NCBI GenBank assembly: GCA_008933805.1
Contig: WBUH01000011.1
Location: forward strand, 53,117-117,116
Reading direction: 5' to 3'
DNA length: 64,000 nucleotides
Source: Bacteroidota bacterium
GTDB taxonomy: Bacteria; Bacteroidota; Bacteroidia; UBA8524
Shown here: one piece after another, positions 2,362-35,947 of the stretch
Position numbering within the stretch: the stretch's first letter is position 1
Layout of the letters: every line of letters begins with the position of its first letter
Translations under genes and position numbers: made by a program
The notes under the pieces: model-generated
The model's database searches: none
What the model was told of the DNA's origin: nothing
The model's input: only the letters and a program-made list of their open reading frames with translations

Positions 2362-2504
2362 GTTTTGCGATTGATAATTGAATGATAGTAAAGAACTTAA
2401 ATGCAAGTTAATGTAATTAATATGACAAAAAAAAGATTTTTTTTGATTGTAACACATTGCCTGTGAGGACATAGGAAGCCAAAAGCACTGCATTAATAAC
2501 AACA

Positions 2505-2545
2505 AAGGCGGGGCATGACTATAAAAGTCATGCCCCGCCTTTTTG
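2505..2545. terminator. rho-independent terminator hairpin (ggcggggcatgact-ataaa-agtcatgccccgcc)
   Basis: A perfect 14-bp stem at 2507-2520 / 2526-2539 with a 5-nt loop, followed by a T-run. It sits immediately downstream of the 3' end of the - strand gene ending at 2562. Confidence 0.7.
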
Positions 2546-2561
2546 ATAAACTTTTCAGGGA

Positions 2562-4349
2562 TTATTCAACCAATAGTAACACCGATTTATTTACACCGTT
2601 CATAGTTATACGAACTGTGTAAGTACCGGTACTCATGTTTGATTTGCTGATATCAATAGGCAAGGTATTGCTTCCTTTTGCAAGGTCAACGCTGCCTGCA
2701 TAATACTGCCTGCCAAGCATATCATAAATGGCTACTTGTGCAGTGGTTGCACTCTCAACCTCTACCGAAACAGCAATGGCTTGCGTACCGGTTTGCATTG
2801 GGTTTGGAGCTACAACAGCTTGCTTATCGCCTTTAGGTTCAGCAGGAGCTACACGGGCATTGCTTCCGCTTGCCAGTGTATTTGCATAGCAAATATTAGC
2901 ATCGTAAGCATTGGTATTTCTCCATTTCATTTTAGCATCAGGCACCAGTTTGTCAACAAAGTTTACACCGGTAGTAGCATAAATTTTTGGCCCGCTGATA
3001 ATGGGCACATCAACGATTATTTGATTGCAAGGAGTTTCGCCGTTAAAGTAGGCTTTCACCAAATACATATCATAGTTACCGTTAATTACAGGGCCTGAAG
3101 CACCTTCCCTAAAGCCAAATACGCTAATACCATCGGCACCTGTACCGTTGTATTGATCGATAGCAATACCATAATCAATACGGCCATCGCCATAGGTAAA
3201 CTGACCGAAACCGCTGGTAGAACCACCGTCTTCAATTTTATCTACCAATATGTCATAGTCGCCCAAAAGGCCCCTGTACACATATCCGGCAGCATAATAT
3301 TCAAAATTACCCGATGTGTTTTTGCGTTCGATAATATCGTTACACACGTTTTGTGTACCGGGATTACCGTTATAATCGTGCAGGGTAGCCCACAAGGTAT
3401 TACCCACGTGGTCGGTTTTGTTCAACCAAACATCTTCGCTACCTGCCCTATCGCTGTAACCGCCTATAATGTAACCATCGCTACCGCCCTTAGTACTTTG
3501 GGCAATATCAATAGCATTAAACGATTCTGATGAGGCAGTAGTACCGTACAAGTTAACAGCAGCCATTGGGTTACCGTTAGCAGCATCCAACCTCAGCATA
3601 TAACCGTCAGGCAATGCTCCCGAAACGTTTTCGCGGGTTTCGCCCACAACAACTATTTCTTTGTTTCCGGTAGGTGAATAAGGGCTGGTGATAACGTCTT
3701 TACCAAATGCAATACCGGCACCTGAACTGTAAACGATATCATAAATACCGCTCCATACAAGTCCGCCGGAGTTTACATCAATCATCATGGCAAAGGGGTC
3801 TAAAGTACCGCTGGTAGTAGTTACAGTTCCTGTAACATACACTTCGTTACCGCCTGTGAAGATAGATTCGTAAATACCTCCTACAGAAATAACATCCTGT
3901 CCTGTACCGCCACCTGCGGGTATATAGGTATAAATTACGCTTACGTTTCCGGCTTGGTCCATCATTAAGTAAAACACCCCTGTAGTTGCAGGAAATACTG
4001 AATAATCAGCAAATTGGCCAATGATACCAAAACCATTACCGTTGTTCATTTCAAAGGCTTTTGATTCGCCCACATGAACTACGTTTCCGGTTACTGAGCT
4101 GATTAGAAAATACCAGCCGTTAAAATAGGGTGCTCCGGTAATATTACCGGTACCGTCGGTGCGTGAAACCGATAGCCCTTGCTGGCTATGATGGCCCACT
4201 AAGAAATGTCCCATGCTCGAAATAGCTGGGTCAGTGTTGATACCTGATGAAAGTTTTTGTCCGTCCGTAGTTCCATAGATGTGATGGAAATACTGTGCAT
4301 TTGCTGTTAACCCGGTTAACACCATTGCAATTAAGAATAGCTTTTTCAT
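2562..4349 (-). CDS. secreted T9SS type A C-terminal sorting domain protein, paralog 2
   Basis: ATG at 4347-4349 gives 'MKKLFLIAMVLTGLTANAQYFHHIYGTTDGQKLSSGINT'. The C-terminus 'VAPNPMQTGTQAIAVSVEVESATTAQVAIYDMLGRQYYAGSVDLAKGSNTLPIDISKSNMSTGTYTVRITMNGVNKSVLLLVE' is a Por_Secre_tail. Long blocks are identical to paralog 3. Confidence 0.8.
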   Translation of the reverse strand: MKKLFLIAMVLTGLTANAQYFHHIYGTTDGQKLSSGINTDPAISSMGHFLVGHHSQQGLSVSRTDGTGNITGAPYFNGWYFLISSVTGNVVHVGESKAFEMNNGNGFGIIGQFADYSVFPATTGVFYLMMDQAGNVSVIYTYIPAGGGTGQDVISVGGIYESIFTGGNEVYVTGTVTTTSGTLDPFAMMIDVNSGGLVWSGIYDIVYSSGAGIAFGKDVITSPYSPTGNKEIVVVGETRENVSGALPDGYMLRLDAANGNPMAAVNLYGTTASSESFNAIDIAQSTKGGSDGYIIGGYSDRAGSEDVWLNKTDHVGNTLWATLHDYNGNPGTQNVCNDIIERKNTSGNFEYYAAGYVYRGLLGDYDILVDKIEDGGSTSGFGQFTYGDGRIDYGIAIDQYNGTGADGISVFGFREGASGPVINGNYDMYLVKAYFNGETPCNQIIVDVPIISGPKIYATTGVNFVDKLVPDAKMKWRNTNAYDANICYANTLASGSNARVAPAEPKGDKQAVVAPNPMQTGTQAIAVSVEVESATTAQVAIYDMLGRQYYAGSVDLAKGSNTLPIDISKSNMSTGTYTVRITMNGVNKSVLLLVE

Positions 4350-4481
4350 GCTTTTGATAGATAGTTTAAATTGTTCTAAAAGAACTTTTTGCAAGTTATA
4401 GCAAATTAAATCATAAAAAAAACAACTTTCAACAAACGCAGTAACCACAAGGGTTTAAGCCATGTCAACTTAAAAAACAAA

Positions 4482-4512
4482 AAGGGTGGCTGCGTTGCAC
4501 ACAGCCACCCTT
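4482..4512. terminator. rho-independent terminator (gggtggctg-cgttgcaca-cagccaccc) with a T-run on the minus-strand transcript
   Basis: A 9-bp GC-rich stem. The - strand transcript continues into 'tttttgtttttt' (the complement of 4471-4483). It lies downstream of the gene ending at 4538. Confidence 0.7.
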
Positions 4513-4537
4513 GTATAATTATGCGTTATAGTGCTAA

Positions 4538-6328
4538 TTATTCAACTAGCAGTAACACCGATTTGTTTTCACCGTTCATGGTTATACGAAGTGTATAGGT
4601 ACCTGCACTCATGTTTGATTTGCTGATATCAATAGGCAAGGTATTGCTTCCTTTTGTCAGGGTAACGCTACCTGTATAGTATTGTCTGCCCAGCATATCA
4701 TAAATAGCTAGTTGCGCAGTGGTTGCACTTTCAACCTCTACCGAAACAGCAATGGTTTGCGCACCGGTTTGCATTGGGTTGGGTGCTACAACAGCTTGTT
4801 TATCGCCTTTAGGTTCAGCAGGAGCAACACGGGCATTGCTGCCTGCACCAAGGCTGGTAGCAAAACAAATATTCAGGTCGTTTGCTGTGGTTTGTCCCCA
4901 ATTAAAAAGGGTTAATGGCACCAAGCGGTCAACCAAATTTGCCGACACAGATGTCATTAGTCCGGGGCCTGATGCATTAATAGCATCCACTATTTTTTGA
5001 TTGCAAGGAGTTTCACCGTTAAAGTAGGCTTTCACCAAATACATATCATAGTTACCGTTAATAACAGGAGAGCTGTATGCTTCACGGAAACCAAACACGC
5101 TGATACCGTCTGCACCGGTTCCATTGTATTGGTCGATGGCAATACCGTAATCGGTAAACTTATCACCGTAGGTAAACTGCCCCATTCCGGTGCTTACCCC
5201 CATATCGTTGGTTTTCACAACCACCATGTCATACGTTCCTCCCATCAAACCATTACGCACATAACCTGCGGCATAGTACTCATATTTACCGCCGGTATTC
5301 AAACGTTCAATCACATCGTTACAAACATTCTCAGTACCACCGTTGCCGTTATAATCATGCAAGCTGGCCCAAAGCGAGCCCAAGGTTTGGTCGGTTTTCA
5401 CCAGCCAAAAATCTTCGCTGCCGTTAACGTCGCTGGCTCCGCCTAAAATAAAGCCATCGCTACCTCCTGCGGTAGCATTTGCTATGCTTATAGAGTTAAT
5501 CTCATCCGTTGATGATGTTGTACCGTAAATATCGGCAGCACCTGTAACGGGAATTCCTGTGCTTGCATCAACACGCAAACTGAACGCATCAGGCAATGAA
5601 CCGCCTGTGGGGTCGTATAATTGCCCTACAAGTACTGCCTCGTCAACACCGTTTGGTGTATATGGACTTTCAATAATATCCCTGGAATATGCATAAGCCG
5701 AGCCTGCACCTGAAGCCAGTTGTATATCATATATCCACGACCACCTGATACCGCCCGAAGTCATATCAAGTTTCATTGCATAGGCAAATACATTACTGCC
5801 TCCGTAAGCAGAACCTGTAATGTATATATCTTTTCCGCTGCTTAGCACTGATTCTGCAACACCGCCAACATTAAAAATATCAATAACAGTTGTTACACCC
5901 GATGGCACATAAGTAAAGATGTTTGATACACCGCCTGCAGGGGTTAGTTGCATATAGAAAATACCTGTGTTAGGTGCGCCAAGACTTAAATCTTGGAACT
6001 TTCCAACAATACCAAAACCTCCGCCATTGTCCATTTCAAACGCCTCTGATTCCTCAACAAAAACCTGTGAGCCTGTAATTGGACTAAAAAGGGTGTACCA
6101 TCCGTCAAAATAAGGTGCTCCAGTCACGTTTCCTGTAACATCAGTACGAGAAACTGCCAGCCCGTTTTGGCCGTTATGGCCTACCAAAAAATGACCTAAG
6201 CCAAGTGCGTTGGTGTTAATACCCGATGATAGCTTTTCTCCATCCGTTGTCCCGTAAATGTGATGGAAATACTGCGCTTTTGCTGTTAACCCTGTTAACG
6301 CCAAAATAATTAATAGAATTTTTTTCAT
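4538..6328 (-). CDS. secreted T9SS type A C-terminal sorting domain protein, paralog 3
   Basis: It starts 'MKKILLIILALTGLTAKAQYFHHIYGTTDGEKLSSGINT'. The last ~250 residues are nearly identical to paralog 2 (for example 'YEYYAAGYV', 'YDMYLVKAYFNGETPCNQ', 'ARVAPAEPKGDKQAVVAPNPMQTG'). It ends in a canonical T9SS tail '...GTYTLRITMNGENKSVLLLVE'. Confidence 0.8.
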   Translation of the reverse strand: MKKILLIILALTGLTAKAQYFHHIYGTTDGEKLSSGINTNALGLGHFLVGHNGQNGLAVSRTDVTGNVTGAPYFDGWYTLFSPITGSQVFVEESEAFEMDNGGGFGIVGKFQDLSLGAPNTGIFYMQLTPAGGVSNIFTYVPSGVTTVIDIFNVGGVAESVLSSGKDIYITGSAYGGSNVFAYAMKLDMTSGGIRWSWIYDIQLASGAGSAYAYSRDIIESPYTPNGVDEAVLVGQLYDPTGGSLPDAFSLRVDASTGIPVTGAADIYGTTSSTDEINSISIANATAGGSDGFILGGASDVNGSEDFWLVKTDQTLGSLWASLHDYNGNGGTENVCNDVIERLNTGGKYEYYAAGYVRNGLMGGTYDMVVVKTNDMGVSTGMGQFTYGDKFTDYGIAIDQYNGTGADGISVFGFREAYSSPVINGNYDMYLVKAYFNGETPCNQKIVDAINASGPGLMTSVSANLVDRLVPLTLFNWGQTTANDLNICFATSLGAGSNARVAPAEPKGDKQAVVAPNPMQTGAQTIAVSVEVESATTAQLAIYDMLGRQYYTGSVTLTKGSNTLPIDISKSNMSAGTYTLRITMNGENKSVLLLVE

Positions 6329-22488: not shown

Positions 22489-25400
22489 TTATTTCAAAAA
22501 CACTTTCACGGTTTTATAAACATTGTTACCGTTTACTTTTACCAGATAGTAGCCCGTTGATACTCCGTTTACGGTTAGGGTTTGTATTTGGTTGCCTGTG
22601 AAGCTTACAGGGGCTTGTACCGTTCTGCCCAACAAGTCTAACACTTCTACCGTGTAGCTTGTTGTGTTGGGTGCATTGATGGTAATAGTGTTACCCGTGC
22701 TGCCCACATACACAGGAACTTTGTTTTCTGTTACTTCTTCTACACTTACGCCGCTTTTCTTGCTGAAACGTAGTTCAAAACGGTTGGCTGTATTGCTAAG
22801 GTCGTGGGCAAAGGTGTAATCGCCTTTGGTGATGTCGTGTTTAGCTCCGCTTTGCTTGTCTTCTAATTCAACGGTGATATTAGGAGCCATGTTTTCTTTG
22901 GTGAAGCTGAAGGTGTATTGTCCTGCTTCTTTGGCTTCAAAACTTAGTTGGGCTGCTTCATTGTTTTCGGGCAATGTGTTCCATACTTCTTTGTTCGCTT
23001 TCTTGCCTTCTAATACAAAGTATAAGTTGGGAGCTGCTAAGTTAGGACGTTTGTTACCGTCCATCACATCGTAACCGTTGGTAGCGTTATCATCGGTATA
23101 AAACTTCACTTTGTCTGTTTTGCCGTTGTTGTCGCTTACTTGTACTTGTACAAAGTTGGGCAGACTGGTTTTATCAAAGTAGTTTACCAAACTGTCTGTT
23201 GTTCTGGCACTGTTCTTTAAAGTGATGCTGGTGTTGTTTGTGGTTACTTCTATCAGCATCGGGGTAAAGGGCGGGATTACTCCGTTATCCGTTCCGTCAA
23301 ATACTTGGTATGCTCCTGCGCTTTGGTTGTATAACCATACTTGGTTGCCTTGTACACCACCGCTGTTAATCGTGATGTTGTTATCGTCCCAGGTAAATCC
23401 GCTGGGCCATGGGTTGCCTATGTAATGCCAGCCTGTGGTATCTGCCATTGAGCCTGTACGGGTGAGGTTAGCGTGGGTATAGTCGGATGTTCCTCGGTAA
23501 GATCCTTGGATATCTAAAGTAAGGGGAAGCGGATTAGCCCAGCTTGAAGTACCGCCCATATAAATAGAGTAGGCACTGTCGCCAAAGGCTGCACTCGTGC
23601 CTGAAGGAATTGACCAATAAGGTGAGGTTTGCTCGTTAAAGTAATACACGGTAGCAAAACCATTATCAGGTGTACCGAAGTTAAGGTTTACATCGTCGTT
23701 TACTTGTGCTAAGGTTGCTCCGCTAACGGGTGAGTTCACAGGTCTCCAATCGGCTCCGCCTCCTGCTATCAGCATTTCAGCGGTTACGCTGCCGCTTAGA
23801 GTACCTGTGCCTGTGCCTGCTATCTGGCCATAGGTGGTTGCTCCCGTGGCTTCTAATTTTAGTTTGTCATTGGTGGTTAGGGTACCGCTGGTAAGAGTAA
23901 GTACTCCGTTGATGCCAAGTGAGTCCTGTATGGTAGCTCCTGCACTATTGTTCAGTTGCAGGTTACGGGTAGTACCCGTTCCGTAAATGTTCTGGGCTGA
24001 AGTACCGTCTAATACTATTTTACCTACTCCGCTTACAGTTCCGTTGTTGGTGTAGTTACTCTTTATGTTTAAATCACCGCTTAGGCTGGCGGTGGTTCCG
24101 CTATTCACCGTTAAGGTGTTTAACACTGCACCGGAAGCGATTGTAGCCGTTCCGGCTGAAACAGTACAAACACAAGATACGGTAGAGCCGCTGGGGCTAG
24201 AACCTACCCAGCCGTTGTTGTATTCAAGTTCGCAGGTACTATTTTGAAAAAAGTAGGCCGCTCCGGCATTGCTTTTATAGTTTCCGCCGGCACTGTCCCA
24301 ATCGTTACCGGCACCTTGTGTACCCGAGCTTATTAATGCATACGTTCCGTCAACTGCTACTGCTGTACCAAAGCGATCACCGGCTACACGGGCACTGTCA
24401 GTATCGGGCGGGGTTAGCTTTTTGCTGTAGCCCCAAACGCCGTTGCTTTTCTTAAACACATAGGCAGCCCCCGATGTAGATTTGAAGTTAACACCAGAGC
24501 TGTCCCAATCCTGCTGTGAAGCACCTATTAATATATAATTACCGCTTATGCTTAATGAGTTACCAAACCCATCACCAATCTTCCTTGCACTATCACTGGT
24601 ATTGGAGGGTGGGGTAAGTTTTTTCACATATCCCCATACCCCGTTATTGCGTTCAAAAACATACGCTGCTCCGGTTTGTAGGGCAAAATTGCCGCCCGCA
24701 CTGTCATAATCATTGCTAACCGCCCCTACTACCAGTGTAGTGCCTTGTAAACTCATGTTTTGCCCAAATTGGTCGCTGCCTACCCTTGCGCTATCGGTAT
24801 TGGGCGGGGTTAGTTTTTTGGCATACCCCCATACTCCGTTTCTTCGTTCAAACATATATACCGCACCGGCCAAACTTTTAAATCTGCCGCCCGCACTGTC
24901 CCAGTCTTGTCCATTGGCACCCACTGCTATATAATCACCGCTAACGGCTACAGCAACACCAAAGTTATCACTGGCTACCCTTGCACTATCGGTATTGGGG
25001 GGGGTTATTTTCTTTTGAAAACCCCAAACCCCGTTCACCCTTTCGTATATCCACGCTGCACCGGCATTACTTTTACCGTTACCGTTGGCACTATCCCGGT
25101 CATGGCCCGGCGCGCCTACTACAATGGTAGTGCCATCTATGGCCACCCTTGTACCAAACTGGTCCAAACTTTGTCGGTCGGGTGCAGTAATTTTTTTCAC
25201 TTGCGTCCATGCTCCAACGCTGTTTCGTTCCCAGATATAAGCAGCTCCGGCTGATGACATATTGTTAAACCCTGTGGAGTCAAAATCATGGTCGCGTGCA
25301 CCCACCACACAATAATCACCACTGATACCGACAGAAATACCAAAAAAATCACTTGTGGCACGGGCAGTATCTCCCCCGCCTGAACTTCTTGGAGACAGTC

Positions 25401-25683
25401 TTTTTACCCTGCCCCATACGCCCGTACTTGGGTTGCGCTCCCATATATGGGCACTACCGGCAGCATTTAAAGAGTTATTCCCAGCTGAATCGTACTCAGC
25501 ATCGGACGAGCCTATAATAGCATAATTACCGCTGAGGCTCACGGATACCCCGAAGTTGTCACCCGCAACCCTTGCACTATCGGTATTGGGGGGGGTTATT
25601 TTTTTTAGGTAATTAAAATTTTGCGAATAGCTCTCAAGGCAGCTAAGCAGGATAAATACCGAAAGTAGTAAAAACCGATTCAT
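22489..25683 (-). CDS. giant secreted FG-GAP (integrin-alpha-like beta-propeller) repeat protein with T9SS type A C-terminal sorting domain
   Basis: Signal peptide 'MNRFLLLSVFILLSCLESYSQ'. There are about 9 repeats of '...KKITPPNTDSARVAGDNFGVSV..SG.Y..IG....D.DSAG......AG.A.I.ER'. The C-terminus 'TVEVLDLLGRTVQAPVSFTGNQIQTLTVNGVSTGYYLVKVNGNNVYKTVKVFLK' is a Por_Secre_tail. Confidence 0.8.
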   Translation of the reverse strand: MNRFLLLSVFILLSCLESYSQNFNYLKKITPPNTDSARVAGDNFGVSVSLSGNYAIIGSSDAEYDSAGNNSLNAAGSAHIWERNPSTGVWGRVKRLSPRSSGGGDTARATSDFFGISVGISGDYCVVGARDHDFDSTGFNNMSSAGAAYIWERNSVGAWTQVKKITAPDRQSLDQFGTRVAIDGTTIVVGAPGHDRDSANGNGKSNAGAAWIYERVNGVWGFQKKITPPNTDSARVASDNFGVAVAVSGDYIAVGANGQDWDSAGGRFKSLAGAVYMFERRNGVWGYAKKLTPPNTDSARVGSDQFGQNMSLQGTTLVVGAVSNDYDSAGGNFALQTGAAYVFERNNGVWGYVKKLTPPSNTSDSARKIGDGFGNSLSISGNYILIGASQQDWDSSGVNFKSTSGAAYVFKKSNGVWGYSKKLTPPDTDSARVAGDRFGTAVAVDGTYALISSGTQGAGNDWDSAGGNYKSNAGAAYFFQNSTCELEYNNGWVGSSPSGSTVSCVCTVSAGTATIASGAVLNTLTVNSGTTASLSGDLNIKSNYTNNGTVSGVGKIVLDGTSAQNIYGTGTTRNLQLNNSAGATIQDSLGINGVLTLTSGTLTTNDKLKLEATGATTYGQIAGTGTGTLSGSVTAEMLIAGGGADWRPVNSPVSGATLAQVNDDVNLNFGTPDNGFATVYYFNEQTSPYWSIPSGTSAAFGDSAYSIYMGGTSSWANPLPLTLDIQGSYRGTSDYTHANLTRTGSMADTTGWHYIGNPWPSGFTWDDNNITINSGGVQGNQVWLYNQSAGAYQVFDGTDNGVIPPFTPMLIEVTTNNTSITLKNSARTTDSLVNYFDKTSLPNFVQVQVSDNNGKTDKVKFYTDDNATNGYDVMDGNKRPNLAAPNLYFVLEGKKANKEVWNTLPENNEAAQLSFEAKEAGQYTFSFTKENMAPNITVELEDKQSGAKHDITKGDYTFAHDLSNTANRFELRFSKKSGVSVEEVTENKVPVYVGSTGNTITINAPNTTSYTVEVLDLLGRTVQAPVSFTGNQIQTLTVNGVSTGYYLVKVNGNNVYKTVKVFLK

Positions 25684-26009: not shown

Positions 26010-27506
26010 TTAATATGCTTTTGCAAATAATACCCGTTGGGTAGACGGCTTTCCTGTTAATATACAAGTGCCTTCTTCTTGTTTATTATCTAAAGGTATA
26101 CAACGAATGGTTGCTTTAGTAAGCTCTTTAATTTTCACCTCGGTTTCAGTAGTACCGTCCCAATGTGCTGCTATAAAACCGGCTTTGTTTTCTAATATAT
26201 CGGTAAACTCATCCCAAGTATTTGCATAATGGATGTTATTATCCCTAAAATCAAGGGCACGCTGGTATATATTGTTTTGGATGTTCTCAAGCAGGTGCAC
26301 AATCTTCTCGTCCAAATCAATCATGCTTAAAAACTCCTTCTCTTTGGTATCGCGGCGAGCCACCTCAACAGTACCCTTTTCCACATCTTTAGGACCAATG
26401 GCTATGCGCACGGGTACACCTTTCAATTCGTACTCGTTAAATTTAAAGCCGGGCTTGTGCGTATCGCGGTTATCATACTTTACTGATAATCCTTTCGCCT
26501 CCAGCATTTTTTTGGCTTCAAGGGCTTTTTCGTTCACCAAAGCAAACTCTTCTTCGCTACGATAAATAGGTATAATTACCACTTGTATGGGAGCCAAACG
26601 AGGTGGCAATACCAACCCGTCGTCATCGCTGTGCGCCATAATCAAAGCACCCATCAGGCGGGTACTCACCCCCCACGATGTTGCCCACACATAATCCAAC
26701 TTACCTTCTTTATCGGCAAATTTCACATCAAATGCTTTGGCAAAGTTTTGCCCTAAAAAGTGTGAGGTACCCATTTGCAATGCTTTCCCATCTTGCATCA
26801 AACCTTCTATACAGTAGGTATCATCGGCACCTGCAAAACGTTCGTTTTCGGTTTTCACACCCTTTACTACAGGCACGGCCAATACGTTTTCAGCAAAATC
26901 AGCATACACCTCCAGCATTTGTTTGGTTTCGGCCACTGCTTCTTGTGCGGTAGCATGGGCAGTGTGCCCCTCTTGCCACAAAAACTCAGCCGTGCGAAGG
27001 AACAAACGGGTACGCATTTCCCAACGCACTACGTTAGCCCATTGGTTTACCAAAATTGGCAAATCGCGGTAGCTCTGTATCCAGCCTTTATAGGTGTTCC
27101 AAATAATCGCCTCACTGGTGGGGCGTACTATCAGCTCTTCTTCCAGTTTGCTGTTGGGGTCAACAATCAATTTGCCTTTGTTATCAGGGTCAGCTTTTAG
27201 TCGGTAGTGAGTTACAACTGCACATTCTTTTGCAAAGCCTTCCGCATTTTTTTCTTCGGCCTCAAAAAGACTTTTGGGCACAAAAAGCGGAAAATATGCA
27301 TTCACGTGTCCGGTAGCTTTGAACCTCCTGTCCAAATCCTGTTGCATCTTCTCCCATATTGCATAGCCGTACGGCTTTATCACCATACATCCTTTAACTG
27401 CACTATGCTCGGCCAAATCGGCGTTTTTCACAAGGTTGTTGTACCAAAGCGAGTAGTCCTCGCTGCGTTTTACTTTTTTATTGTCCATTGTGTTTACATT
27501 ATTCAA
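26010..27506 (-). CDS. proS: proline--tRNA ligase (archaeal/eukaryotic-type class II ProRS typical of Bacteroidota)
   Basis: '[43 protein letters not shown]' is the signature ProRS N-terminus. Length of ~490 aa and the C-terminal Zn-binding ProRS-C1 region ('CIPLD...[10 protein letters not shown]') fit. The true start may be the downstream ATG at 27488. Confidence 0.9.
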
Positions 27507-27607: not shown

Positions 27608-29008
27608 ATGAAATGGGTATCTTCTTTAGTTATTGTTCTTTTGTTGGGCGCTTGCTCAACGTCGCAAAAATATTCAAATAGCCGATACCAAAGGCAGAAT
27701 AATACCGACGATGCGTATTTTTCGCCCGATGATGTGAAAAAAAACACCTCCGCCAAACGCGAGGAGGCTAAGACAGAAGTGGAAGAAGCGCCGGTAGAAC
27801 AATACCAAGGCAACTCTTCGTACTACGATAATACCCACGACGAAACTGCAAACCCAAATGCTGCACAACGCGGCACTAACTATCAGCAGTATTCTCAAAA
27901 TAATAATACTTCTACCAATATTACTCCTCCGCCTTCAAACCCAAATTCATTGCAAGGCACCCCACAATACAACATTACCAATAACTACTACGGTGGTTCG
28001 TATTTTGGCCGCAGACCATACTCTCCCATGTTTTACCCTTGGATGTCAAGCCCGGGCATGTCAATTTCATACAACACATGGAATAATTCGTGGTACATAG
28101 GACCCACTTTTAATTCAGGTTGGGGCTACAATAATTGGAATGCCGGATACAACCCATACGACCCTTGGGGGTGGAATAATAATTACTGGGGCTGGAATAA
28201 TTCATGGGGATATAATAGCTGGAATAATCCTTGGAATAATAACTTTGTTTACGACCCATGGATGAATACTTGGGTATATATGCCATTTAGCTACAATAGC
28301 TGGGGCTATAACCCTTATAATCCTTACATGGGGTATAACCCATATTCGCCTTATTATTCACATTGGGGACATAACCCCTACGACCCTTTTTGGAGTATCG
28401 GTAATAACAACGGCGGCAGCACAGTATCTAATACCGTAAACACCCGCCGAAGACCCACCAACAGCTTTATGCCTGCCACACAAACCGCAGGAACCAACGG
28501 CGGTTCTCGTATTGTAGGCCGTACAGAACGTATTGAGCAACCAACCACAGGCAATACTCCTACCCCTACAACTCCCCCCGCAGGCGGCACTTATACAAGG
28601 GGTGATGTTAATACAACACCTACTACCCCAACAACTACCGGTACTCGCACACAACCCGATTACCGTACTTACCCAACGGGTAGTAATACACCGTCAACCC
28701 CATCTGCTCCATCAACTAATACAACGCCTCCGCCAACAAATTACAACCCTTCGCCCGCTGGAGGCACGTATGGTAATGGAAACGCAAGCACAACACCATC
28801 GCGTAACAACAACACGCCAACTAATGTGCAGCCTGCTCCGCAAGCCCCTACACAACAACGCTATACTCCCCAACCTACCAATAATGCTCCCCGCGATGTA
28901 TTTGCCCCACAAAACACCGGAGGCAATAACGGAGGCTCTAACCGTAACGGCGGTAGCACCGGCGGTGGTGGTGGAGGTAATAACGGTGGCGGCGGCAGAA
29001 GAAGGTAA
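27608..29008 (+). CDS. extreme low-complexity lipoprotein: W/N/Y-rich aromatic-Asn repeats, then a P/T-rich tract, then a Gly/Asn-rich C-terminus ending RRR
   Basis: Lipoprotein signal 'MKWVSSLVIVLLLGACSTSQ'. 'WNNSWYIGPTFNSGWGYNNWNAGYNPYDPWGWNNNYWGWNNSWGYNSWNNPWNNNFVYDPW', then '...PTTPPAGGTYTRGDVNTTPTTPTTTGTRTQPDYRTYPTGSNTPSTPSAPSTNTTPPPT', then '...GGNNGGSNRNGGSTGGGGGGNNGGGGRRR'. It lies 29 bp upstream of the FadL-like OMP gene. Confidence 0.6.
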   Translation: MKWVSSLVIVLLLGACSTSQKYSNSRYQRQNNTDDAYFSPDDVKKNTSAKREEAKTEVEEAPVEQYQGNSSYYDNTHDETANPNAAQRGTNYQQYSQNNNTSTNITPPPSNPNSLQGTPQYNITNNYYGGSYFGRRPYSPMFYPWMSSPGMSISYNTWNNSWYIGPTFNSGWGYNNWNAGYNPYDPWGWNNNYWGWNNSWGYNSWNNPWNNNFVYDPWMNTWVYMPFSYNSWGYNPYNPYMGYNPYSPYYSHWGHNPYDPFWSIGNNNGGSTVSNTVNTRRRPTNSFMPATQTAGTNGGSRIVGRTERIEQPTTGNTPTPTTPPAGGTYTRGDVNTTPTTPTTTGTRTQPDYRTYPTGSNTPSTPSAPSTNTTPPPTNYNPSPAGGTYGNGNASTTPSRNNNTPTNVQPAPQAPTQQRYTPQPTNNAPRDVFAPQNTGGNNGGSNRNGGSTGGGGGGNNGGGGRRR

Positions 29009-29037
29009 TCTAAGCTGTTTTTTGTAAGCACTTTTGC

Positions 29038-30549
29038 ATGAAGAAATTAATTTTAGCATCGATGCTGGCAGGGCTTGCTGTGCAAGCACAGGCTCAAGGT
29101 TTTTTAGACCTTAAACGATATTCTGTAACCCGCCAGTTTGGTACGGCCCGAAGCATGGGTATGGGCGGCGCAATTGGTGCTACCGGTATTGATTTTAGTG
29201 TGTCGCAGGTAAATCCTGCCGCATTGGGACAAATCCGAATAAGTCAGGCATCGGGCACTATCGGGTTAAACTTTACCGGAAACAGCGGCACCTATCTCGA
29301 CCATAACGTGCAAGACAATCGCTTTAATTTTTCAATACCCAATATTGGAATTGTGTTATCTAAAGTGCAAACCAAAATGGGTAAGGAAAAAACCACTGGA
29401 TTGGTGAGTTACTCGTTTGGCTTTGGATTTAACCGCGTAAATGATTTCAACCGAAATATTACAATCTCTGCCCCAAATTCACAAAGCAGTTATTTGGATT
29501 ATCTGGCCGAACAAGCCACTAAATATGTTGACTGGAATAGCACTGCCAACAATTTTTATCCCTTTTACCCCGAAGAATTAGCCTTAGCGGCAAATACCAT
29601 TGTTCACGTAGGTGATAATAAATACGAAGCAAACCTGCCCAACGTAGTAACCATGAACCAAAACTACCGCTATCAGCAAAGCGGCAGGCAAACCGATTGG
29701 AATATCTCGTGGGGAGGGAACTTTAGCCACCGTATGTATTTTGGAGCTGCTATAAGTGTTCCCGCAATACGGTATAACTCAACCGAAACCATCACCGAAC
29801 AGTCTGACGACCCCAACCTAAGCCCCAACGTTTCGTTTGAACAAAACACAACTGTTTCTACCTCAGGAACGGGCTTTAATGGTAAAGTAGGGCTAATGTT
29901 CAGAGCTAATGACTGGCTTCGCTTGGGTTTGGCTTACCACTCGCCTACCTCATACACCCTTACCGACCAGTTTAGTTATACGTTCATGTCTCGTAACTTT
30001 ACAAACGGTCAGTTTGTGTACACCTCAGGACAACTACTGAGTTCTGACCCCGGCAACTTTAAGTATAAATTTGTTACCCCGGGAAAAATGGTATTGAGCA
30101 CTGCCCTAGTTTTGAAAAAAACAGCCATGGTAGCCATTGATTACGAGATGGTGAATTATAAAGAAGCCCAAAGCCCAACCAGCGAACTCATTTTCGTAAA
30201 CAATTTAGTACGTGATAATTTTAGGACGGCTGATAATTTCCGCATCGGGGGCGAATACAATTATTTAGATTACCGTTTCAGGGCAGGATATGCAATGTAT
30301 GCTTCGCCGTTTAACAATGTAATTTTAAATGCCATCAAAGGCGAGAACCTTGCCTTGCAGGTATATAGCCTCGGCTTTGGCTATCAGGAACCGTCAGGAA
30401 ACCTGTTTTTTGATGCCGCATTAATGTACGAGCAGTTTAGTGAGTTCTATACTCCGTATTTATTAGAAACCTCAAACAGACCCTATTTCACCTCAAGTAA
30501 TAAAGTAGGCATCACCCGTTTGATGTTTACAGTAGGTTCACGTTTCTAA
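29038..30549 (+). CDS. FadL/OmpP1/TodX-family outer-membrane beta-barrel (possibly PorV/LptO-like)
   Basis: Signal peptide 'MKKLILASMLAGLAVQAQA'. The N-terminal 'SARSMGMGGAIGATGIDFSVSQVNPAALG' is the hallmark FadL-family motif. The C-terminus ends in an aromatic residue ('...MFTVGSRF'). 503 aa. Confidence 0.6.
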   Translation: MKKLILASMLAGLAVQAQAQGFLDLKRYSVTRQFGTARSMGMGGAIGATGIDFSVSQVNPAALGQIRISQASGTIGLNFTGNSGTYLDHNVQDNRFNFSIPNIGIVLSKVQTKMGKEKTTGLVSYSFGFGFNRVNDFNRNITISAPNSQSSYLDYLAEQATKYVDWNSTANNFYPFYPEELALAANTIVHVGDNKYEANLPNVVTMNQNYRYQQSGRQTDWNISWGGNFSHRMYFGAAISVPAIRYNSTETITEQSDDPNLSPNVSFEQNTTVSTSGTGFNGKVGLMFRANDWLRLGLAYHSPTSYTLTDQFSYTFMSRNFTNGQFVYTSGQLLSSDPGNFKYKFVTPGKMVLSTALVLKKTAMVAIDYEMVNYKEAQSPTSELIFVNNLVRDNFRTADNFRIGGEYNYLDYRFRAGYAMYASPFNNVILNAIKGENLALQVYSLGFGYQEPSGNLFFDAALMYEQFSEFYTPYLLETSNRPYFTSSNKVGITRLMFTVGSRF

Positions 30550-30632
30550 GCTGTTTGTTCGCCGAAAACTTTCGGTTTTTCTATGTTTATTAGGGCTTGT
30601 CGCGTATTTTTGTTAAAAACGCTCTTAAACCT

Positions 30633-31211
30633 ATGACAGAATGGTGGACTGCCCTCGACGGCTTCGATAAAATGCTATGGGCCATTACCCTTGTTTCTAC
30701 CCTTATTTTTATCTTTCAAACTATCGCCACCTTCACAGGCATGGATAGCGACGGCGGTGTTGATGCCGATTTTTCAGGTGATATGGAAACCCACCACGGC
30801 GGTGATACTCCGTTTCAACTGTTCACCTTCCGCAACTTTGTAAACTTCTTCTTGGGCTTCGGCTGGACGGTATTATCGTTAGAAGACACCATTGGCAACC
30901 GCGCAATAACTTTACTTATCGGCGTGTTGGTGGGTGCTTTGCTCGTAGCAGCAGTCATGTACATGTTTTTCGCCATCAGCAAGCTTAGCCAATCAGGCAA
31001 CATGGAGTTGAAAAATGCCATAGATAAAACCGCACAGGTATATCTCACCGTTCCGGCCAATAAAAGCGGAGCAGGTAAAGTACACGTGCAAATACAAGGC
31101 AGTTTGCACGAGCTGGATGCAATGACCGAAGGGGACGCACTGCCCACCGGCTCTATGGCAAAAGTGAAAGAAATACTTACCGATAAAATAGTATTAGTAG
31201 AAAAAATCTAA
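30633..31211 (+). CDS. NfeD/YqiJ-like membrane protein (flotillin-associated, OB-fold C-terminus)
   Basis: It has two or three TM helices then a C-terminal beta-rich domain ('KVHVQIQGSLHELDAMTEGDALPTGSMAKVKEI'). It lies directly upstream of a flotillin gene, the classic yqiJ-yqiK arrangement. The start is taken at ATG 30633; the ORF extends to 30597. Confidence 0.65.
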   Translation: MTEWWTALDGFDKMLWAITLVSTLIFIFQTIATFTGMDSDGGVDADFSGDMETHHGGDTPFQLFTFRNFVNFFLGFGWTVLSLEDTIGNRAITLLIGVLVGALLVAAVMYMFFAISKLSQSGNMELKNAIDKTAQVYLTVPANKSGAGKVHVQIQGSLHELDAMTEGDALPTGSMAKVKEILTDKIVLVEKI

Positions 31212-31234
31212 CCTCTTTAATAGTTCATTAGTTT

Positions 31235-32767
31235 ATGCCCGAATTAATTTTTGTAGTTGTAATTGCTGCCGTTCTGTTTGTAACATTTGCAGCCCTTTTA
31301 TCGCGTTACAAACGTTGTCCGTCAGACAAAATTTTGGTTATTTACGGTAAAACCGGAAAACAGTCTACCGCACGTTGTGTGCATGGTGGTGCCGCCTTTA
31401 TCTGGCCGGTTATCCAAAGCTATGCCTTTTTGGATTTGAAGCCCATTTCTATCGAAGCTAACCTTACTAATGCACTTAGTAAGCAAAACATCCGTGTAGA
31501 TGTTCCCTGCCGTTTTACCATTGCAATTACCACCGACCCTGACAGCATGAACAACGCTGCCGAACGTCTTTTGGGTCTTAGCAACGACCAAATACACGAG
31601 TTGGCTAAGGATATGCTGTTTGGCCAATTACGTTTGGTGATTGCAACCATGGATATTGAAGAGATTAACAGCGACCGTGATAAGTTTTTGGCCAACGTTT
31701 CAACCAACGTAGATACAGAATTGCGCAAAATAGGCTTGAAACTGATAAACGTAAACGTAACGGATATAAGAGACGAATCGGGCTATATTGAGGCCTTGGG
31801 TAAGGAAGCTGCTGCAAAAGCCATTAACGAGGCTAAAAAGAGCGTTGCTGAGCAAGACCGCTTTGGTGAGATTGGTAAGGCGGTAGCCGAACGTGATAAA
31901 GACGTAAGTATTGCCGAAACCCAACGCGACAGGGATGCCAGTATTGCCAATACGGTAAAAGACCGTGAGGTATTGATTGCGATTGCAAAACGCGACGAGG
32001 CCATCGGTAAGGCAGAAGCAGAACGCGAAACCCGTATAAAAACCGCTGAAGCGAACTCAATTGCGGTGGAAGGTGAAAACACGGCAAAAATCACCATTGC
32101 CAATTCTGATTCGTTGCGTCGTGAACGCGAAGCAGAGGCTAACAAAAAGGCGGTATCGGCTGAAAAGGTGCAAACTGCAAAAGCATTGGAAGAATCGTAC
32201 CATGCTGAAAAACTTGCGGAAGAAGCCCGTGCACAGCGCGAAAAGGCAACCCAAGAAGCTAACATTATTATCCCTGCACAAATAGAAAAAGAAAAGGCGA
32301 TTATCGACGCTGAAGCCGAAGCAGAGCAACTGCGCCGCAGGGCAAAAGGTGAGGCAGATGCAATATTTGCTAAAATGGACGCTGAGGCCCGCGGTATGTA
32401 CGAAATACTTACCAAGCAGGCCGAAGGTTACCAACGCATTGTAGCGGCTGCCGGCGGCGACCCTGCTAAAGCGGTTACCTTCTTAATTGCTGATAAACTG
32501 CCCGAATTGGTGCGCACACAGGTAGAGGCCGTTAAAAACATTAAAATTGATAAGATTACGGTTTGGGAAAACGGCAGTAATGCCGATGGCACTACCAGTA
32601 CCTCTAACTTTATTTCAGGAATGATGAAGGCCGTGCCCCCATTAAACGATTTGTTTAATATGGCAGGAATGAACCTACCCAATTACCTGAAAGGGGATGA
32701 TAAAAAGGCGGACGCTCCTACCAACACTACTACACCCACTAACGACAACGATAAACCTGCGTTGTAA
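31235..32767 (+). CDS. flotillin (SPFH/band-7) family protein, YqiK/FloT-like, with a long coiled-coil and an acidic/Thr-rich tail
   Basis: N-terminal TM 'LIFVVVIAAVLFVTFAALL', the SPFH block 'VDVPCRFTIAITTDPDSMNNAAERLLGL', and a long A/E/K/R-rich coiled coil ('AEAERETRIKTAEANSIAVEGENTAKITIANSDSLRREREAEANKKAVSAEKV'). Confidence 0.85.
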   Translation: MPELIFVVVIAAVLFVTFAALLSRYKRCPSDKILVIYGKTGKQSTARCVHGGAAFIWPVIQSYAFLDLKPISIEANLTNALSKQNIRVDVPCRFTIAITTDPDSMNNAAERLLGLSNDQIHELAKDMLFGQLRLVIATMDIEEINSDRDKFLANVSTNVDTELRKIGLKLINVNVTDIRDESGYIEALGKEAAAKAINEAKKSVAEQDRFGEIGKAVAERDKDVSIAETQRDRDASIANTVKDREVLIAIAKRDEAIGKAEAERETRIKTAEANSIAVEGENTAKITIANSDSLRREREAEANKKAVSAEKVQTAKALEESYHAEKLAEEARAQREKATQEANIIIPAQIEKEKAIIDAEAEAEQLRRRAKGEADAIFAKMDAEARGMYEILTKQAEGYQRIVAAAGGDPAKAVTFLIADKLPELVRTQVEAVKNIKIDKITVWENGSNADGTTSTSNFISGMMKAVPPLNDLFNMAGMNLPNYLKGDDKKADAPTNTTTPTNDNDKPAL

Positions 32768-33796: not shown

Positions 33797-35947
33797 TTAA
33801 TAGAATTTGTAGCGCATATCTGTAATATCAGACAGTTTGCGCAATGCTTCAGTAGCACGCATTTCTGAACCGCTGGTAGCTTGTTGCGCCATACGCAATT
33901 TAACCTCGTCTAGCTTTTCAGGAGCTTTAGCTTCATCCTTAGCTGTTATGTAAAATGCATACACGCCGGCTTGACCTTTTACAGGACCGGTAATTTTATT
34001 TTTCTCGCTGCCGAACAAATAACCCAACAAACGAGGCTCCATACCGATACTCAAAACGTTTGGAGATACAAAAGTTTGGTAAGGAATATCTATTACCTGA
34101 GTGTTTAGTTTTTGTGCCACTTGGTCAAGGCTGGTAGCACCGTTCAGTGCATCCTGCATTTTTTGACGCAATTGGGCAGCTTTCTTTTCTTTACGAACTT
34201 GCTCTTCTAGTTTCTCACGAACGTCTTCTACCTTGGCAGTACCTTTTTCGCGGATACCTACTACACGTGCAATGATAATCTTGGTGTTACCATCAACATC
34301 CATAGGCTCAGAAATATCGCCAACTTTACGGTCGTCGTTAAACGCCCAAAGTACAACACGACGAGCATCGTTGATACCTGAAAACGTTTGGTCGTTAGGA
34401 CCTACTTGGTCAGCTATACGCTTGCTCATTCCCATTTTCTCAATCAGTTGGTTAAACTGCTCTTCGTTTGATGCAGAACCATAGAATTCAGTAGCCTTAT
34501 TTGATATGCTTTTCAGTGTTTCTTTTCCGGGTTCAATCACACGGCTGATCTCAGCCACTTTTACCATGCGTGAGCTTGGTTCAGCAGTTACTTTTACAAG
34601 GTGAACACCTTGGCCGGTAGCTACAATAGTATAATCACCGGTGCGGGTGCGGGTTACTGCATCCACAAGGTCTTTAGGCAACATTGGTGATTTTTTCTCA
34701 AACCATCCCAAATCACCACCTTTAGTGTTAGTACCGGGGTCTACGCTAAATTCTTTTACAGCATCTTCAAACGATTTACCACCGCGAATTTGAGCCAGTA
34801 CATCGGCAGCTTTTTTACGGGCGTTAATGGTATCGTCTTTGGTGATACCTTCAGGCCTGATAAGAATTTGAGCTGCATTGTAAAACAAAATGGTGTCGTT
34901 TTTAGCATCCAACACTTTGTAAATTTTATACGCTCCGTCTTTATACAAGGGGCCTACAACTGTACCTTTTTCAGCACTGAACAAAGGACCTTCAACTTCT
35001 TGGTTGAAAGCACCGCGGCGTTTAAAGGTTGTATCGTACATACCACCGTTGTTTACGATATAAATTGAATCGTTGGCAGTTTGTTTTAGCGCTTCGGTTT
35101 TTTCTACAGCCCATTTAAGAGTAGAAGCAGAATCTTCTTTTGATGGGAATATGTTAAAGGCCACATACTCCATTTTGCGAGAGTCTTCTTGCTTGAAATC
35201 TTCTGGGTGTTTTTGCAAGTATTCGCTCAACTCAGCATCAGTTACTTTAATAGTAGAATCTGAAATACTGAAAAAGTCAAGTTTTACAATCTGTGCTTTA
35301 ACATTGGTGTTAGTTGCAGCAAAATCTTCTTTGGCTTCTAGTGAGGTAACGTGTGAAACCTGACGCAAGTACGTGAAGTACTTTTTGTTTTGGATTTCTT
35401 CCATGATACCGTTATCAATGTATTCAATCCATTGCTTTTCTTCGTCGCTACCTTCTTCCAATTGCTGGCGGTGACCAAGTGCTTTTGAAAGATCAAGCTG
35501 ACCCATTGGGTTACGGAACTGTTCAAAGATTTGTCCTTCCTGTGGGTTGGTAAAATAACTCACCATACGTTGCGAAGGCTCAGGAGCTTTAAACTCAATC
35601 CAAGTAAGTTCCTCAGGACTGATTTTAATACCCATTTTCTCGTATTGTTTTTTCAATACAAGGTCTTTGAAGAAGTTTTCCCAAACTTGGTCGCGTATCA
35701 TACCTTGAAGCTCGTTGGGAACTTCACCGTATTGTTTGCGGTAGTTTTCTTCTACTTCGTTAACTTTTTTATCAAAGTCTTCGAATTTGATTTTTGTGCC
35801 TCCGATTTTTCCGACGGTATTTTCTTGTCGGTTAAAAAGTGAACTGTTGCTTGAGAAGGCATCTGTAAGGATGAACGCAAGCAGCGAAACAAAAATAACG
35901 CCTATAACAAGGCCCGAACGTTGTCTAATTTTACCTATAACAGCCAT
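33797..35947 (-). CDS. PpiD/SurA-like periplasmic chaperone, peptidyl-prolyl cis-trans isomerase (parvulin domain) with N-terminal membrane anchor
   Basis: The N-terminus 'MAVIGKIRQRSGLVIGVIFVSLLAFILTDAF' is PpiD-like. The parvulin block 'SFEDAVKEFSVDPGTNTKGGDLGWFEKKSPMLPKDLVDAV' is present. 716 aa. Confidence 0.8.
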   Translation of the reverse strand: MAVIGKIRQRSGLVIGVIFVSLLAFILTDAFSSNSSLFNRQENTVGKIGGTKIKFEDFDKKVNEVEENYRKQYGEVPNELQGMIRDQVWENFFKDLVLKKQYEKMGIKISPEELTWIEFKAPEPSQRMVSYFTNPQEGQIFEQFRNPMGQLDLSKALGHRQQLEEGSDEEKQWIEYIDNGIMEEIQNKKYFTYLRQVSHVTSLEAKEDFAATNTNVKAQIVKLDFFSISDSTIKVTDAELSEYLQKHPEDFKQEDSRKMEYVAFNIFPSKEDSASTLKWAVEKTEALKQTANDSIYIVNNGGMYDTTFKRRGAFNQEVEGPLFSAEKGTVVGPLYKDGAYKIYKVLDAKNDTILFYNAAQILIRPEGITKDDTINARKKAADVLAQIRGGKSFEDAVKEFSVDPGTNTKGGDLGWFEKKSPMLPKDLVDAVTRTRTGDYTIVATGQGVHLVKVTAEPSSRMVKVAEISRVIEPGKETLKSISNKATEFYGSASNEEQFNQLIEKMGMSKRIADQVGPNDQTFSGINDARRVVLWAFNDDRKVGDISEPMDVDGNTKIIIARVVGIREKGTAKVEDVREKLEEQVRKEKKAAQLRQKMQDALNGATSLDQVAQKLNTQVIDIPYQTFVSPNVLSIGMEPRLLGYLFGSEKNKITGPVKGQAGVYAFYITAKDEAKAPEKLDEVKLRMAQQATSGSEMRATEALRKLSDITDMRYKFY

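Follow-up and report, generated by a model that had tools for sequence, protein, structure and literature searches.

The 64,000-nucleotide (nt) stretch of Bacteroidota DNA analysed here (the window; contig WBUH01000011.1) carries two adjacent genes on its forward strand, one for a low-complexity lipoprotein, called the partner below, and the other for an outer-membrane barrel of the FadL family (Table 1). An earlier, sequence-only reading of this DNA had reported the two open reading frames (ORFs) 29 nt apart and had described the first product as almost entirely low-complexity, with an aromatic-Asn part, a Pro/Thr part and a Gly-rich part ending in RRR; both the ORFs and the composition were confirmed. 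Comparison with relatives revealed that the partner and the barrel are encoded by an ancient and widespread gene pair of the Bacteroidota, in which the partner-type gene stands immediately 5′ of the barrel gene. The two genes are probably co-transcribed, and the terminator-like hairpin 3′ of the barrel gene indicates that the membrane-protein and flotillin genes further downstream look like a separate unit. No convincing promoter was found in the 101-nt spacer between proS and the partner gene by a sigma-70 scan and a search for the Bacteroidota –7 motif TAnnTTTG, and no regulatory RNA or tRNA was found near the pair.

Table 1. Coordinates of the gene pair, its parts and its conserved neighbour in the window
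Feature	Position	Strand	Basis or remark
Partner gene, 466-amino-acid (aa) low-complexity lipoprotein	27608..29008	+	ORF; homologues; same architecture in 75/75 loci
Signal peptide with lipobox LGAC (Cys16), then STSQKY (no acidic export signal)	27608..27655	+	Sequence; lipobox and export-signal (LES) analysis
Conserved N-terminal motif NTDDAYFSPDD	27701..27733	+	Family consensus [E][Y/T]-D-D-[VLMI]-Y-[FY]-x-[PS]-x-D-[R]
Aromatic block, residues 121-275	27968..28432	+	47 W/Y/F, N/G/S/P matrix, three [FWY]DP[FWY] motifs
Net-cationic Thr/Pro-rich tail, predicted disordered, residues 276-466	28433..29005	+	Includes clade motif RRRPTNSFMPA
Terminal Gly-rich run ending RRR	28928-29005	+	Within the tail
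Intergenic spacer, 29 nt, without terminator-like site	29009..29037	+	
Barrel gene, 503-aa 14-stranded FadL-family outer-membrane barrel	29038..30549	+	
N-terminal plug ('hatch'), residues 20-68	29095..29241	+	Mature N-terminus QGF..., GTARSMGMGGA, NPA motif
NPA motif, residues 59-61	29212-29220	+	
Terminator-like hairpin and T-run, 12 nt 3′ of the barrel stop codon	30561..30586	+	Hairpin itself 30561-30576
proS (prolyl-tRNA synthetase), divergent, conserved neighbour of the pair	26010..27506	−	Pfam

The partner protein and the barrel

The window partner starts with MKWVSSLVIVLLLGAC, whose lipobox LGAC makes Cys16 the lipid-bearing residue. Its overall composition is dominated by Asn (15.2%), Thr (12.4%), Pro (11.2%), Gly (10.9%), Ser (9.0%) and Tyr (8.2%), with 3.9% Trp, and the bias shifts along the chain. 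The aromatic block (residues 121-275) contains 20.6% Asn, 15.5% Tyr and 11% each of Trp, Gly and Ser, together with 10% Pro, and its W/Y/F residues are evenly spread at a spacing of mostly 2-4 residues; Thr (24.8%) and Pro (17%) prevail in residues 276-440, and the last 26 residues (441-466) are 54% Gly and finish with RRR at the C-terminus. Shannon entropy drops to 2.75-3.3 bits in 40-aa windows. Tandem repeats in the DNA of the partner gene are weak and short only, which points to a compositional bias and not to recent repeat expansion, and a DNA repeat expansion was ruled out as the origin of the low complexity on these grounds. Moreover, close homologues (36-87% identity) keep a series of discrete motifs, namely SQKYSNSRYQ..NNTDDAYFSP.D, ETANPNAA.R, VYDPW.N.WVY, RRRP.N.FMPA and GGGGRRR. 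The retention of specific motifs, and not of composition alone, indicates that the partner gene is under selection and is no spurious ORF, and validates its reading frame.

The partner is predicted to be an almost wholly intrinsically disordered secreted protein. Aliphatic residues make up 8% of the mature residues in the partners, which fits intrinsic disorder, and the AlphaFold2 (AF2) model of the window partner had a mean predicted local distance difference test (pLDDT) score of 35.4, being uninformative as a structure. The window partner had no relatives in Pfam, NCBIfam, PADLOC or the sequences of the Protein Data Bank (PDB), and no credible Pfam match at E<=1 was obtained for seven diverse partners.

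The assignment of the second gene to the FadL family by the sequence-only reading was sustained by both profile and structural evidence. The window barrel exceeded the 29.7-bit cut-off of the Pfam family Toluene_X (FadL/TodX, PF03349) with a score of 37.8 bits over residues 269-466 (E 1.1e-9) and matched no NCBIfam model. A profile of the barrel family reached TbuX at 2.8e-14 and, besides it, CymD, TodX and a FadL homologue of P. aeruginosa. The AF2 model (pLDDT 87.5) comprises 14 long strands with short periplasmic turns, long extracellular loops and a C-terminal Phe; residues 20-68 precede strand 1, and a helical, well-predicted extracellular cap loop is placed at residues 137-205. The plug formed by residues 20-68 is the most conserved region of the protein, with a mean column conservation of 0.68 among 83 barrels versus 0.2-0.4 for loops. 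At nine plug positions (Q20, A37, R38, G44, G50, D52, N59, P60 and A61), conservation among these barrels is 90% or higher, a level reached outside the plug by S151, Y196, Y374 and N388. Residues N59-P60-A61 correspond to N33-P34-A35 of FadL (numbered from PDB titles), and the predicted mature N-terminus of the window barrel, Q-G-F, matches the A-G-F of FadL with Phe at position 3.

These barrels are classed here as a distinct subfamily of the FadL family, and as neither PorV nor BamG. The type IX secretion system (T9SS) shuttle PorV is likewise a FadL-superfamily barrel of the same phylum, and the organism of the window has T9SS cargo proteins. The likeness to PorV drawn in the sequence-only reading was nevertheless abandoned: no PorV match was found in Pfam or NCBIfam, both of which presumably include a PorV model, and chain 6h3i_F was matched at an E-value of only 1.1e-3, over residues 1-78. 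Similarly, the family profile retrieved no BamG chain at E<=1, and neither did the single sequence at E<=10. Transporting FadL proteins are separated from BamG by an N-terminal extension of 10-12 residues in the latter (PMC12578637); by a by-eye alignment that is moderately secure, the barrel lacks this extension, and its plug is about 7 residues longer than that of FadL, with the extra residues spread internally. The barrel also departs from the FadL/TodX/TbuX channels of PF03349, since it is about 75 residues longer, bears the large helical extracellular loop, shares only 10-16% identity with them and matches the Pfam model in its C-terminal half only. Furthermore, the proteobacterial channels are found without a dedicated disordered partner, whereas the barrel of the pair is always encoded with one.

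Conservation of the pair and architecture of the partner family

Relatives were found by scanning one genome per species with a 10-sequence barrel alignment, which yielded 111 relatives, from which 79 distinct loci were kept. A whole-protein search with the partner returned only 10 close relatives, and the partner family was therefore defined through the neighbourhood of the barrel. All partner counts below refer to the 75 loci, the window included, whose upstream gene is complete. The barrel homologues range from 91% down to about 25% identity, and the first three neighbourhoods checked, including that of Polluticoccus soli (29% barrel identity), contained proS, a protein of about 400-490 aa without a Pfam match and the barrel. 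The 79 loci came from Chitinophagales-like metagenome-assembled genomes (MAGs), Roseivirga, Cyclobacteriaceae, Dyadobacter, Alistipes, Odoribacter, Parabacteroides, Tannerella, Proteiniphilum, Muribaculaceae and others, so that the pair is present in Chitinophagales-like, Cytophagales, Flavobacteriales and Bacteroidales genomes, and it was found in gut, oral, soil and marine lineages. When 1.84 billion representatives were searched with a profile of the barrel, 3,825 clusters (50% identity) scored at E<=1e-30.

A partner-type gene lies immediately 5′ of the barrel gene and on the same strand in all of the 75 loci, without exception; the C-terminal part of the partner was still visible in loci cut by a contig end. 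The notion of a dedicated gene pair, to which the sequence-only reading had opposed the case of a low-complexity ORF kept in no relative, was thus upheld throughout the phylum. Matching loci were also observed in a Flavobacteriales genome, where the partner gene is partly masked, on a 3.75-Mb contig, and in a barrel cluster recorded on 215 contigs, which shows the same pair pattern without an adjacent proS. Partner and barrel genes are separated by a median of 33.5 nt, and the gap is at most 50 nt in 48 of 78 loci and at most 80 nt in 58 of 78. The divergent proS gene is found upstream of the pair in 56 of 82 loci, and in Rikenellaceae, Dysgonomonadaceae and others this neighbour was lost and the pair remained intact.

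Some loci of this collection have peculiarities of their own. In L067, a run of N (1100-1500) masks a portion of the partner gene and hides it from simple ORF calling. Five loci (L006, L008, L042, L059 and L070) are titled Agrobacterium, Burkholderiales, Hyphobacterium, Thalassovita or Planctomycetota, yet they have the gene content and synteny of Bacteroidota, and they are probably mis-binned or mislabelled MAGs. The one labelled Planctomycetota (L070), with a truncated barrel on an odd contig, was set aside.

The upstream partners are secreted proteins of 340-590 aa with a single shared architecture: a signal peptide, a DDxY[FY] motif, an acidic head, an aromatic block and a cationic tail with a basic end, always encoded next to the barrel. 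The window partner conforms to it, with DDAYF at residues 34-38, 35 aromatic residues in its best 100-residue window, a tail charge of +10 and the terminal RRR. The DDxY motif occurs at residues 23-36 in 74 of the 75 partners, and the protein P0077 of L009 has the motif too once its start is corrected. About two thirds of the partners are lipoproteins, in which the DD follows the lipid-bearing Cys at a distance of 10-18 residues (median 12), and one third have a signal peptidase I (SPase-I) site of the A-Q|E type, with the DD 2-8 residues after the cleavage site. In both types the motif therefore keeps a fixed distance from the mature N-terminus, as expected of a docking or recognition peptide.

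The remaining segments are defined by charge and composition. The acidic head has a median net charge of –8. The aromatic block carries 24-48 W/Y/F per 100 residues, has a pooled composition of Y 20, G 16, W 9.5, N 9, S 9, P 8 and F 7%, and the motif [FWY]DP[FWY] is present in 52 of the 75 proteins. The tail is net positive in every partner (median +22), and Ser (27%), Arg (13%), Gly (12%), Asn (9.5%) and Thr (9%) lead its pooled composition. Arg is preferred to Lys family-wide (R:K 2073:154, about 13:1), and two to four R/K stand among the last six residues in 74 of the 75, with no conservation of the last residue.

Lineage-specific versions of this architecture were also observed. The richness in Asn and the Pro/Thr linker are features of the clade of the window only, and the other partners are Ser/Gly-, Met/Gly- or His-rich. 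The partners of Alistipes and Rikenellaceae (L072, L074, L076, L079-L082) possess a coiled-coil-like head (AEAELAKAQYEAQQAQYEA...) and a motif altered to DDLYS[IV]HNK, and in the partner of L072, the one full sequence read of this lineage, the aromatic block is followed by a His-rich run, HHYHHHHGHHHNHYHPHH. In L016 and L071 (Cyclobacteriaceae and Dyadobacter), a Met/Gly/Tyr-rich version (GMGYGSMMGMGYG...) replaces the aromatic block, which suggests that the 'sticker' chemistry differs by lineage.

Evenly spaced Tyr/Trp stickers together with an Arg-rich tail are a family-wide trait. The Tyr-Arg grammar of phase separation is well known, and the partner can be likened, by composition alone, to the FUS-family low-complexity and RGG proteins, with which it shares spaced Tyr/Trp stickers, a matrix of Gly/Ser/Asn/Pro and an Arg-rich, Gly/Ser-rich region. 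It differs from them in being a secreted protein of the bacterial envelope without RNA-binding domains, and the analogy is functional, with no homology. Accordingly, the compositional claim of the sequence-only reading stood in part: its phase-separation type holds for the whole family, its emphasis on Asn and Pro/Thr holds for one clade, and its prion-like or amyloid features were not borne out, because the window partner reaches 22 Gln and Asn in 80 residues where a Q/N-rich core of the prion type requires 30, and curli-like features are absent.

Possible roles of the pair

Surface lipoproteins of Bacteroidota are recognised by at least two acidic residues at positions +2 to +7 after the Cys (PMC12578637). 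Acidic residues are absent from this interval in 46 of the 49 lipoprotein-type partners, the other three having one, and the window partner, with C-STSQKY, has none. In the light of this missing export signal, the lipoprotein-type partners are predicted to face the periplasm, and probably do so. No T9SS C-terminal domain was detected on the partner (no Por_Secre_tail match), though neighbouring genes have it.

In Flavobacterium johnsoniae, the supplementary tables of a TamL study list Fjoh_4939 as proline-tRNA ligase (proS) and Fjoh_4940 as a signal peptidase II (SPII) type 'periplasm-facing lipoprotein, function unknown'; Fjoh_4941 is entered there as a barrel of the OMPP1/FadL/TodX kind (PMC12045153). 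Both Fjoh_4940 (UniProt A5FA28) and Fjoh_4941 were detected in outer-membrane fractions, TamL depletion raised them 2.6-fold and 5.6-fold, respectively, and the authors remarked that their adjacency 'might indicate a functional link' (PMC12045153). Judged by proS synteny, they would be the F. johnsoniae counterpart of the pair, and in the paper library searched, none other than PMC12045153 names either of them. Barrel-lipoprotein pairs and FadL-fold barrels are known kinds, and this barrel subfamily with its obligatory disordered partner, including the motif and composition of the latter, is undescribed except for that passing remark.

A relevant precedent is BamG-BamH (PDB 9hiv, 9n2d, 9hjm), also composed of a Bacteroidota FadL-fold barrel and a lipoprotein, in which BamG holds the conserved N-terminal tail of BamH, and whose paralogues BamG2-BamH2 are likewise encoded in an operon (PMC12611786, PMC12578637). 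The two systems differ in that the barrel of the pair has neither the BamG extension nor detectable similarity to BamG, and its partner is disordered, with neither the surface-export signal nor the fold of BamH. The F. johnsoniae genes of BamG and BamG2 are Fjoh_1412 and fjoh_1686, respectively; the BamG, BamG2 and BamH loci are separate from the proS-linked Fjoh_4940/4941, which makes Fjoh_4941 another paralogue.

The explanation that we tentatively favour, as a possibility still short of probable, is an outer-membrane module in which a FadL-type channel and a dedicated, tethered, disordered periplasmic partner are coupled for the handling of hydrophobic molecules and for outer-membrane homeostasis. 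The barrel would act as a channel, given that it keeps hallmarks of transport-competent FadL proteins, namely the N-terminal plug with NPA and the absence of a BamG-type extension. The partner would be fixed to the outer membrane's inner face through its lipid anchor (in two thirds of the family), through the N-terminal DDxY[F/Y] peptide, or through both, and the invariant peptide would dock onto the barrel, as proposed from the grip of BamG on the N-terminal tail of BamH. The rest of the chain, comprising the acidic head, the Tyr/Trp 'sticker' block and the long Arg/Ser/Gly cationic tail, would extend into the periplasm, where the block and the tail may self-associate or bind the membrane interface, anionic peptidoglycan or inner-membrane lipids. 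In this manner, the partner could couple the channel to the periplasmic side, and the induction of the F. johnsoniae proteins on TamL depletion is consistent with a role in outer-membrane homeostasis. That the two proteins act together is much more secure than the role given to the tail.

Several points weigh against this module. The export-signal rule is a rule of thumb applied to sequences, one third of the partners have no lipid anchor, and these unanchored proteins could be released or exported. The physical complex of partner and barrel is argued by analogy, the roles of the aromatic block and the cationic tail are deduced from composition alone, and Fjoh_4940/4941 are tied to the pair by proS synteny alone. 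Moreover, only 11 close sequences stood behind the AF2 model of the partner, and on so shallow an alignment a low pLDDT by itself is weak evidence of disorder. To our knowledge, proteobacterial FadL channels need no periplasmic partner.

The sequence-only reading had favoured an export or surface-anchoring pair, in which the barrel exports or anchors the partner as an adhesive coat, a fibre or a functional amyloid. Such a display system might be expected from the aromatic, Gly/Asn/Ser and Arg composition, which resembles that of adhesive or coacervating proteins such as mussel foot proteins, from the lack of a membrane anchor in the SPase-I-type partners, from the binding of a surface lipoprotein by BamG and from the well-predicted cap loop of the barrel and a few highly conserved residues (S151, Y196, Y374 and N388). 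It is nonetheless unlikely, and the claim was not retained: the export signal is missing in nearly all lipoprotein-type partners, the lumen of the barrel is filled by its highly conserved plug, and we know of no FadL-family member that conducts a polypeptide. The counterpart by synteny in F. johnsoniae, in turn, was recovered with the outer membrane and is listed as facing the periplasm. An amyloid in particular is disfavoured by the Q+N content (3 of the 75 partners reach 30 in 80 residues) and by a Pro/Gly-rich, non-repetitive sequence without amyloid-type repeats or a beta-solenoid prediction, and the match to FapF is remote. The curli (CsgA/CsgG) and Fap (FapC/FapF) systems similarly join a low-complexity secreted protein to a neighbouring outer-membrane barrel gene, but imperfect amyloid repeats are missing from the partner, which is Pro/Gly-rich and predicted disordered, and no accessory chaperone genes lie nearby; with neither such repeats or a Q/N-rich core nor a CsgG- or FapF-type barrel, the pair was not assigned to these systems.

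Alternatively, the barrel could be a non-transporting anchor for an envelope tether or spacer whose cationic chain binds peptidoglycan or the inner membrane, and the partner might even be a functional stand-in for Braun's lipoprotein (Lpp) or form a periplasmic gel or brush, both versions being doubtful. The uniformly positive tail with its terminal basic residues, the induction on TamL depletion, itself a stress of outer-membrane homeostasis, the housekeeping-like distribution across the phylum with its proS linkage and the absence of Lpp from the Bacteroidota, as far as we know, would all suit a tether. Yet the plug and the NPA motif of transporting FadL proteins, needless in a mere anchor, are kept; two thirds of the partners have a lipid anchor of their own and need no barrel for anchoring; and the last residue of the partner is not conserved, unlike the cross-linking Lys of Lpp. 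It is very improbable that the barrel is a BamG-type accessory of the machinery for beta-barrel assembly (BAM) with the partner as a BamH-like client or scaffold, in view of the lack of a match to BamG chains at the E-values given above, the FadL-like mature N-terminus, the absence of a folded BamH-like domain in the partner and the distinct identities of BamG and BamG2 in F. johnsoniae; Fjoh_4941 appears to be absent from BamA pull-downs, as it is not among the BAM subunits named in the published study, nor is it mentioned anywhere in that paper. No more credible is a merely inherited synteny with the two proteins working independently. The persistence of proS shows that ancient synteny can endure at this locus without an obvious functional link, but partner and barrel stay on the same strand, mostly with a short spacer, in lineages where all other neighbours have changed, and the partner is missing from no locus with a complete upstream gene.

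Bacteroidota outer membranes differ from the E. coli model, as the BAM structures of 2025 made evident, and the FadL fold has been re-used there as PorV and BamG; the pair looks like a third use of this fold in the phylum. The barrel subfamily amounts to thousands of clusters at 50% identity, and the partner, with its invariant N-terminal motif, is as yet in no protein family database. If the partner self-associates or bridges the periplasm, a new principle of envelope organisation or of hydrophobic-molecule traffic would emerge. It is a speculative and doubtful extension that the partner is the first envelope protein of bacteria to follow the Tyr/Trp-Arg sticker-spacer grammar of eukaryotes and forms a barrel-nucleated condensed or gel layer at the outer membrane, either under or on it. 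Such a layer would capture hydrophobic molecules or couple the outer membrane mechanically and electrostatically to the peptidoglycan or the inner membrane, and a condensate-forming partner would be a phylum-wide, so far unrecognised component of envelope homeostasis in the Bacteroidota. F. johnsoniae is genetically tractable, and the function of the pair is therefore directly testable.

Neighbouring genes in the window

Directly 3′ of the barrel gene (30597-32767, + strand) lie the genes of a 204-aa membrane protein without a Pfam match and of a 510-aa flotillin/Band_7 protein (FloT-like), which together look like an operon of the NfeD-like plus flotillin type; L001 has both of them at this place behind its barrel gene, unlike L002 and L004. 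At 3 kb downstream of the pair, a gene at 33797-35947 (− strand) encodes a 716-aa PpiD/SurA-like periplasmic chaperone with SurA_N and rotamase domains, and no evidence links it to the pair. A 709-aa ORF without a Pfam match at E<=0.001 is located at 60402-62531 (− strand). On the other side, proS is adjoined by a gene (22489-25683, − strand) whose 1064-aa product combines FG-GAP repeats with a T9SS sorting domain; this gene occupies the same place in L002 and L003. Further upstream, at 550-6328 (− strand), three tandem ORFs of about 600-650 aa have the T9SS C-terminal sorting domain as their sole Pfam match and may represent a paralogous array of T9SS cargo.

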